From NCBI GenBank assembly GCA_963706715.1, contig CAVPNI010000004.1:384001-448000 (forward strand): 64,000 nucleotides of DNA, in the 5' to 3' direction. Below are positions 9,282 to 9,702 of the stretch, one piece after another. Numbering within the stretch: the first letter of the stretch is position 1; each line of letters opens with the position of its first letter. The DNA comes from an uncultured Verrucomicrobiae bacterium. Lineage in GTDB: Bacteria; Verrucomicrobiota; Verrucomicrobiia; Chthoniobacterales; Xiphinematobacteraceae. The notes below the pieces were generated by a model. That model did not search any database and was not told the DNA's origin. It worked only from the letters and a program-made list of their open reading frames with translations. A program made the translations under genes and the position numbers.

Positions 9282-9702
9282 GTGCGCCGTGAAAAGCCGC
9301 GGAAAATCCAGCGGGAGGAAGATAACCCGACCGGGAACTAATTGCTCCACCCGGAACCACCTGGAGGGACGAAGGAGGCAACGAAACCGTTCAAGCACAC
9401 CAGGAAAAAGGAACACATCGGTAGCCCAAGGAAGCAAGATAGGCTTTAACATGAGTGAACACCGAGCAAGCTTCGAATGAGAAACTAGGTTTAATCCGAT
9501 TAGGAAAGACAACCAGCAACTTTCCGTGGACGAAAGCATAAATACACACCTTGGTCCGAAAGCCGGATGCAGGAAATCTGCATGTCCGGTTTGATGAGCG
9601 GGAACAGGAAACGGATGAGCTTGAGGCACCGGTATCGGCGAAAGCCGCCGGAAACTGCTACTCCCTCAACCCTACAGTTACCGCGCCTGTTCTCGACTCT
9701 AC
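9282..9702 (+). ncRNA. ORF-less, internally deleted group II intron (421 nt)
   Basis: 5' GTGCG. DV AAGCCGGATGCAGGAAATCTGCATGTCCGGTTT (9560-9592) with AGC triad. DVI with bulged A9696 and 3' ACTCTAC. EBS1 GAATGAG (9475-9481) complementary to IBS1 CTCATTC (9275-9281). Confidence 0.9.

Follow-up and report, generated by a model that had tools for sequence, protein, structure and literature searches.

A 421-nt group II intron derivative that retains its ends, DV and DVI and about half of DI: probably a deletion relic

Introduction

How much of a group II intron can be lost before what remains is no longer an intron? The question is raised by a 421-nt element that a preliminary description took to be a group II intron reduced to a whole DI followed by DV and DVI, with two origins offered: deletion after insertion, or a MITE-like existence as a non-autonomous intron complemented in trans. 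Were its RNA active, the structural minimum for a group II ribozyme would be lowered, with a bearing on the paring-down that led to group III and spliceosomal introns. As a relic it would carry little weight, being yet another decayed intron in a genome full of mobile elements, together with the caution that DV/DVI and intact ends can outlive a lost scaffold.

Setting and target

The window, the whole stretch of DNA analysed, comprises 64,000 nt (C4:384001-448000) of a genome of 3.04 Mb in 4 contigs; positions elsewhere are given as contig:position. The element occupies non-coding DNA between two ORFs, in the following setting.

7065-8750 (+): ORF of 561 aa with no Pfam match, left neighbour of the element
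8761-9234 and 9946-10120: inverted-repeat elements, one on either side of the element
9254..9281 (+): 5' half of a dispersed target repeat of ~52 bp, with IBS1 at 9275-9281
9282..9702 (+): the element, 421 nt
9703..9726 (+): 3' half of the target repeat, with IBS3 at A9703
10140-11537: pyridine nucleotide-disulphide oxidoreductase, right neighbour of the element

That both ends are intact, as first described, is borne out by GTGCG at 9282 and CTCTAC ending at 9702, which place group II ends (5' GUGYG, 3' AY) precisely at the target junction. The boundaries are exact because the joined target, CTCATTC/ACCCAC, exists empty elsewhere in the genome, at 8 places exactly and at a further 2 in a version that differs by one base, and the 28 nt of 9254..9281 also stand directly 5' of a related copy at C3:947185. 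There is a practical corollary: the joined target is already present as genomic DNA at 8 further loci, so that RT-PCR for a ligated junction would give false positives with primers inside the 52-bp repeat. Promoter and terminator scans at the element gave results at chance level, and among the public runs listed as containing the element sequence there is no RNA data set.

The target is itself part of a mosaic, decaying dispersed repeat of ~160 bp (9254-9281 plus 9703-9726 in the window, and ~20 further loci) that is often chained to other short repeats; a full-length transposon behind it was looked for in the genome and none was identified. The inverted-repeat elements at 8761-9234 and 9946-10120 are mutually related and MITE-like, with terminal inverted repeats of 24-51 nt; one end of the former is found again at dozens of genome sites, and the type of the latter also truncates an intron copy at C3:255k. 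The 561-aa ORF has a short internal repeat, SPISPQPISPQPIS.

The parent intron and the deletion

BLAST of the genome found two identical 2,020-nt introns (C4:281738-279719 and C3:518056-516037), referred to here as the parent, whose reading frame codes for an intact group II RT/maturase (TIGR04416, 351 bits against a cut-off of 300; RVT_1 and GIIM). The element aligns to it at 85% in two pieces, nt 1-199 and nt 1788-2020, with no bases added between them, so that a single alignment gap (nt 199 to 1788) accounts for the loss of ~1,590 internal nt. This one-gap alignment, taken with a junction present in single copy, supports the first of the two origins offered in so far as the element is a deletion relic.

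The breakpoints were read against this 85% proxy and against a 96% identical partial sister at C3:654770, and the search for an RT-encoding parent was successful in part: two intact RT introns at 85%, and no full-length member of the element's own subfamily. A closer full-length parent was not found in 40 relatives, in metagenome_contigs searched with the exact 5' 28-mer, or at loci located through their RT, 80 of them from genomes and 80 from metagenomes (best 75% and 62%). Two other internal intron deletions in the same genome have overlaps that are also just ~2 nt. As an aside, both full-length introns lack 12 nt of a DI hairpin that is seen in a fragment at C1:671351, and the DI form so shortened appears to have been mobile, since the two identical introns occupy different sites.

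What the element retains

Helices were assigned with a consensus fold from an alignment of 21 full-length relatives, in which 74 of the 126 predicted pairs have changed on both sides. The parts that can be recognised are as follows.

9282..9477 (+): the 5' ~196 nt of DI only, 85% to parent nt 1-199 and 96% to the sister at C3:654770
9287-9291 and 9297-9309 (+): orphan 5' basal arms of DI, from the 21-relative helices
9331-9354 (+): Ib, with putative alpha at 9342-9347; Ia is also retained
9360-9404 (+): Ic, from the 21-relative helices
9410-9427 (+): decayed hairpin; orphan 5' strands of Id also lie within 9282..9477
9477/9478 (+), within 9475..9481: deletion junction, whose two sides overlap by 1 nt when read against the parent
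9479..9541 (+): DIV remnant that encodes the final 20 residues of the RT/maturase and includes its stop codon, from translation and alignment to the parent protein tail
9549..9554 (+): probable 3' strand of the stem at the base of DIV; parent nt 487-492, with which it would probably have paired, are deleted
9558..9592 (+): DV, with AGC triad at 9561-9563 and 5-nt terminal loop at 9573-9577
9597..9702 (+): long DVI of ~105 nt, with bulged branch A9696 and 3' end AC

Much of what had been described at the 3' end stands. DV is canonical, with its AGC triad and pair probabilities of 0.6-1.0; A9696 is bulged in a DVI of pair probability 0.99; and the proposed Infernal search gives a match of Rfam Intron_gpII to 9558-9702 at 43.2 bits (gathering score 40). 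At the other end, the Ib and Ic stems agree with helices conserved in the 21 relatives. The corresponding DI model, Rfam D1D4-4, gives the element 40.0 bits where the gathering score is 49, the sister reaching 53.1 and the parent 59.2. The DIV basal stem is proposed from complementary hexamers at parent nt 487 and 1858, their pairing being inferred. For the element as a whole, the minimum free energy is no better than that of shuffled sequences (z -1.36).

The scaffold that is missing

It is in the middle that the architecture first proposed gives way. Translation of 9479-9541 yields EKLGLIRLGKTTSNFPWTKA followed by a stop, homologous to the C-terminus of the parent protein, EKLGLIRLTRTTRNFPWAKA; 9521-9529, which had been taken as the 3' arm of a DI basal stem with 9297-9305, are F-P-W codons near the end of that protein and so belong to DIV. 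What had passed for a whole DI is thus ~196 nt of it and then the last 20 RT codons, and the interval of about 21 nt between the end of DI and DV does not exist in the form described, because the supposed arm is coding sequence. The stem has a pair probability of at most 0.02 in the ensemble of the element. Of 1,500 random 80-nt windows of the genome, 101 (6.7%) contain a run of at least 9 pairs with 9297-9305, against none of 59 windows taken from the parent ORF; the 9-bp substitute stem is treated here as chance.

The real basal stem, according to the 21-relative fold, pairs parent nt ~6-28 with nt ~334-353, the Id helices lying between, and it is present in the minimum-energy fold of the sister. 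Its 3' arm (within nt 340-361 of the sister) is gone from the element, as is CACGG, the partner of 9287-9291. DI in this class of intron is ~330-360 nt long (median 330, n=89; 353 in the parent). Besides the 3' strands of Id, the deletion has removed the EBS1 stem-loop, the putative alpha' and EBS3, all located in parent nt 200-353 and part of the complete, closed DI of a functional group II ribozyme, then DII, J2/3 and DIII (parent nt ~354-485) and most of DIV. An alternative fold that accommodates DII and DIII is ruled out, their sequences being absent.

Where did the parent lineage keep its guide sequences? The loop at nt ~216-228 is identified as EBS1 by pairing with exons: the paired run averages 5.1 between an intron and its own exon (n=38) and 3.06 when introns are combined with the exons of others (n=1,334), and runs of at least 5 are seen in 18/38 and 15.7%, respectively. 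A variable hairpin at sister nt ~262-280 had been a candidate for the EBS1 loop and was rejected, as exon pairing in the 38 introns points to nt ~216-228; the EBS1 of the sister was read at the homologous position, its first base being mismatched and hence missed by the automatic pick. The EBS3 column pairs with the first base of the 3' exon in 11/11 introns tested, 9 of which have the same base, and no covarying column emerged when delta' was looked for (best 16/23). Complementary segments that would make alpha', picked out of the alignment by eye, fall within the large loop that the helix at columns 260-322 encloses.

The Id strands missing here presumably frame the kappa/zeta motifs. With the Id 3' strands, the EBS1 stem, alpha', EBS3, DII, DIII and 5' DIV all gone, DV would have no docking scaffold, and DV and DVI, intact as they look, are likely mere recent leftovers. 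In the available sections of PMC3575829, D1 plus D5 is given as the minimal catalytic core, with D5 docking at the kappa/zeta region of D1.

As for the seven-nucleotide match to IBS1 that had been taken as EBS1/IBS1 pairing, GAATGAG at 9475-9481 does perfectly complement IBS1 at 9275-9281, and in a precursor fold the two pair with probability 0.82; however, the 7-mer spans the deletion junction 9477/9478 and is not in a stem-loop. Lacking a real stem (a weak hairpin has probability 0.03-0.04), it does not rescue the architecture. The same 7-mer is not enriched in the window (14 occurrences, 11.3 expected).

Copies and decay

A search for further copies with the same junction, as had been suggested, found one copy in 3.04 Mb; the junction has 0 exact matches in genome_contigs, and in 40 relatives nothing matches across it. 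The subfamily that shares the element's sequence and target has 5 copies, 5/5 of them broken, each differently, and no full-length member in the genome. Those other than the element are:

C3:947185-947353: ~170 nt, same target, both ends, no DV; 5' 79 nt joined to DVI (deletion from nt ~78 to DVI)
C3:255534: 5' part, truncated by an inverted-repeat element
C3:654770: the sister, 5' ~410 nt, 96% to the element
C3:887012: 3' part

Against the sister, the 5' part of the element has 5 substitutions and 1 insertion, one of the substitutions being derived in the sister; three fall in one hairpin, whose stability goes from -10.7 kcal/mol in the sister to 0.0 in the element. Such decay is absent from the 3' part, where DV is canonical and DVI is identical to that at C3:947k over the part they share, with one difference from that at C3:887k.

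Contigs from two public sequencing runs, either of which may be the source sample, show only that the deletions exist in actual DNA: in the one (X1) a 184-nt contig is identical to 9367-9550, extending 111 nt to the left and 73 nt to the right of the junction, and the other (X2) contains the C3:947k form. Among 10 other genomes with this intron class, 2 short derivatives with both ends were seen, and they keep at least 466 and at least 488 nt of 5' RNA, which would be DI through about DIII, as judged from match ranges only.

Origin of the element

The element is best regarded as a deletion relic, formed after insertion or dead on arrival, and as such is an already-known kind of object: according to the portions available of PMC4424553, among bacterial group II introns the truncated or inactivated copies outnumber the intact ones, and internal deletions of such introns are on record in those of PMC4181065. 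Going by its sequence, it is very probably a single-copy ~2-kb RT intron, minus ~1,590 internal nt, at its exact target and in all likelihood no longer capable of splicing or mobility. Its ancestor would have been a full-length intron of a subfamily that has since died out, with RNA of IIE/IIF-like type and a guide sequence that was likely GAATGAG, which retrohomed several times into the small dispersed repeat; in this copy nt ~200-1787 would then have been lost by short-overlap end-joining. The loss may have been of DNA after insertion, or the RT may have jumped across a broken intron RNA during insertion; template switching by group II intron RTs is described in the available text of 10.1101/792986 as optimal with a single base pair. 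Counting against a relic are the undamaged DV and DVI, a junction that is the exact complement of IBS1, and the 9-bp substitute stem (1 in 15 in random windows and 0/59 in parent-ORF windows).

An alternative is a working, non-autonomous mini-intron, its DI re-closed by the ORF-derived arm, the junction 7-mer serving as EBS1 and the parent RT acting in trans. Exact ends, intact DV and DVI, the perfect 7-bp match and the possible closing stem are all compatible with this, two intact RT copies at 85% identity are at hand in the genome, and trans-mobilised ORF-less introns do exist (PMC2882425, in the sections available). Nevertheless, the substitute stem hardly forms, one hairpin has decayed, the EBS1 stem, alpha', EBS3, DII and DIII are wanting, the junction is single-copy and the 8 exact empty targets are unoccupied. 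A protein supplied in trans should, moreover, be unable to provide the missing RNA scaffold, and the precedent in the same sections of PMC2882425 lost DIVb only, its other domains being kept. The trans-complemented, MITE-like origin first entertained consequently finds no support; we consider such a mini-intron very improbable, and just as little is to be expected of the novel proposition that a 421-nt RNA left with half of its DI, and lacking DII and DIII, still recognises and cuts the 5' exon. A literature search, most subscription papers lying outside its scope, found no natural active intron without Id, DII and DIII. A mis-join, in assembly, of 5' and 3' parts of repeated introns might be suspected in a genome so rich in near-identical repeats (30 DV matches, 25 of them above cut-off, and 16 RT matches), but the X1 contig crosses the junction with no difference over 9367-9550, both halves are 15% off the two 2,020-nt introns, the sole full-length copies, and together the flanks make up a single exact target, which leaves an artefact the least credible explanation of all.

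Is the match at the junction, then, a coincidence? The chance that a random junction of 5' RNA and ORF spells GAATGAG is 4.7e-4, for a match that was noticed post hoc, and it invites the thought that the element is a dead relic whose deletion was nonetheless guided by guide/target pairing. In one version, cDNA ending CTCAT at Tyr-Glu codons jumped to the EBS1 loop and then to the GAA before the loop, the real EBS1 being left as a 7-base island between two deletions; in the other, the intron attacked its own ORF, cutting the antisense strand at a site resembling IBS1. In favour are the true EBS1 of the sister, AAATGAG at nt 222-228, which agrees with the junction 7-mer at 6/7 positions, the ATGAG common to the EBS1 loop and the ORF breakpoint (parent nt 1788), and the template switching of group II intron RTs in the text available of 10.1101/792986. 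That switching is, however, described there as end to end and slower with longer overhangs; one deletion with a 1-nt overlap accounts for every base, while the island model requires two invisible junctions; and the other both-ended deletion of the family, at C3:947k, has no such match. The antisense version requires Asn before Glu, and Asn is found there in 8/86 relatives; in the list of the 15 commonest codons it is encoded by AAC alone (8 counts), not by AAT. ATGAG occurred in 0/95 EBS1 loops read at RT-found genome and metagenome loci. With one junction to go by, we think a guided deletion unlikely, without dismissing it: were it real, it would reveal a way for intron RTs to produce copies with internal deletions, and a route to miniature derivatives that has not been described. 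Two random deletions that happened to leave EBS1 were judged, by rough reasoning, less likely than one deletion plus chance.

Relation to known intron derivatives

The comparisons that follow draw on the portions available of the publications named. Nearest in kind to the relic are the remnants of RmInt1 (FRE652, and the AK83 copy with an internal deletion; PMC4181065), likewise derived from an RT intron, intergenic and lacking essential parts; FRE652 keeps DI-DIII and loses its 3' end, whereas the element keeps both ends with DV and DVI and loses its middle from inside DI. TeI3 of Thermosynechococcus elongatus (PMC2882425) also has an ORF mostly deleted, with a C-terminal ORF remnant at the breakpoint, and intact RT relatives, which the element matches in having the two 2,020-nt copies at 85%, with a different EBS1. 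There the likeness ends: in its 17 copies TeI3 has a shared breakpoint restricted to DIVb, while the junction of the element is not repeated at several sites and its deletion starts inside DI (left breakpoint nt 199). Group III introns of Euglena (PMC4424553) are, like the element, strongly reduced group II derivatives with conserved ends, but at 90-120 nt they lack DV and are numerous and spliced from genes, as against one intergenic copy with DV.

With regard to class, the 5-nt DV (zeta') loop of the element resembles IIE/IIF introns and its long structured DVI is IIF-like, and in the parent the putative alpha' may lie in a DId stem-loop region and the protein has RT and maturase domains only (PMC3753933); on its RNA features the parent lineage may be IIE/IIF-like. 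IIE/IIF introns are, however, complete ribozymes of 450-700 nt (PMC3753933), and the element is without Id, DII and DIII.

Other introns of potential interest came to light. ORF-less derivatives of the same class at G045:C1:5626444-5627157 and G048:C18:323763-322862 keep about DI-DIII and the 3' end, again from match ranges only. The genome also has a 677-nt ORF-less group II family of 4 copies, at C2:335868-336544 (+), C3:566607-567284 (+), C3:890409-889733 (-) and C1:594692-594019 (-), which are 94-100% alike, have a strong DI match of 91-100 bits with Rfam D1D4-2, as would befit a mobile non-autonomous intron, and have DV/DVI 96% like those of an RT-bearing intron at C4:2277; three share a repeated flank and the fourth differs. 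This family is a better candidate than the 421-nt element for a non-autonomous intron mobilised in trans. Group II introns that are nested or adjacent, and twintron-like, are found at C4:1492-4200, C3:216000-220600 and C3:129165-131649, and a 1,905-nt intron family has at least 8 near-identical full-length copies in the genome.
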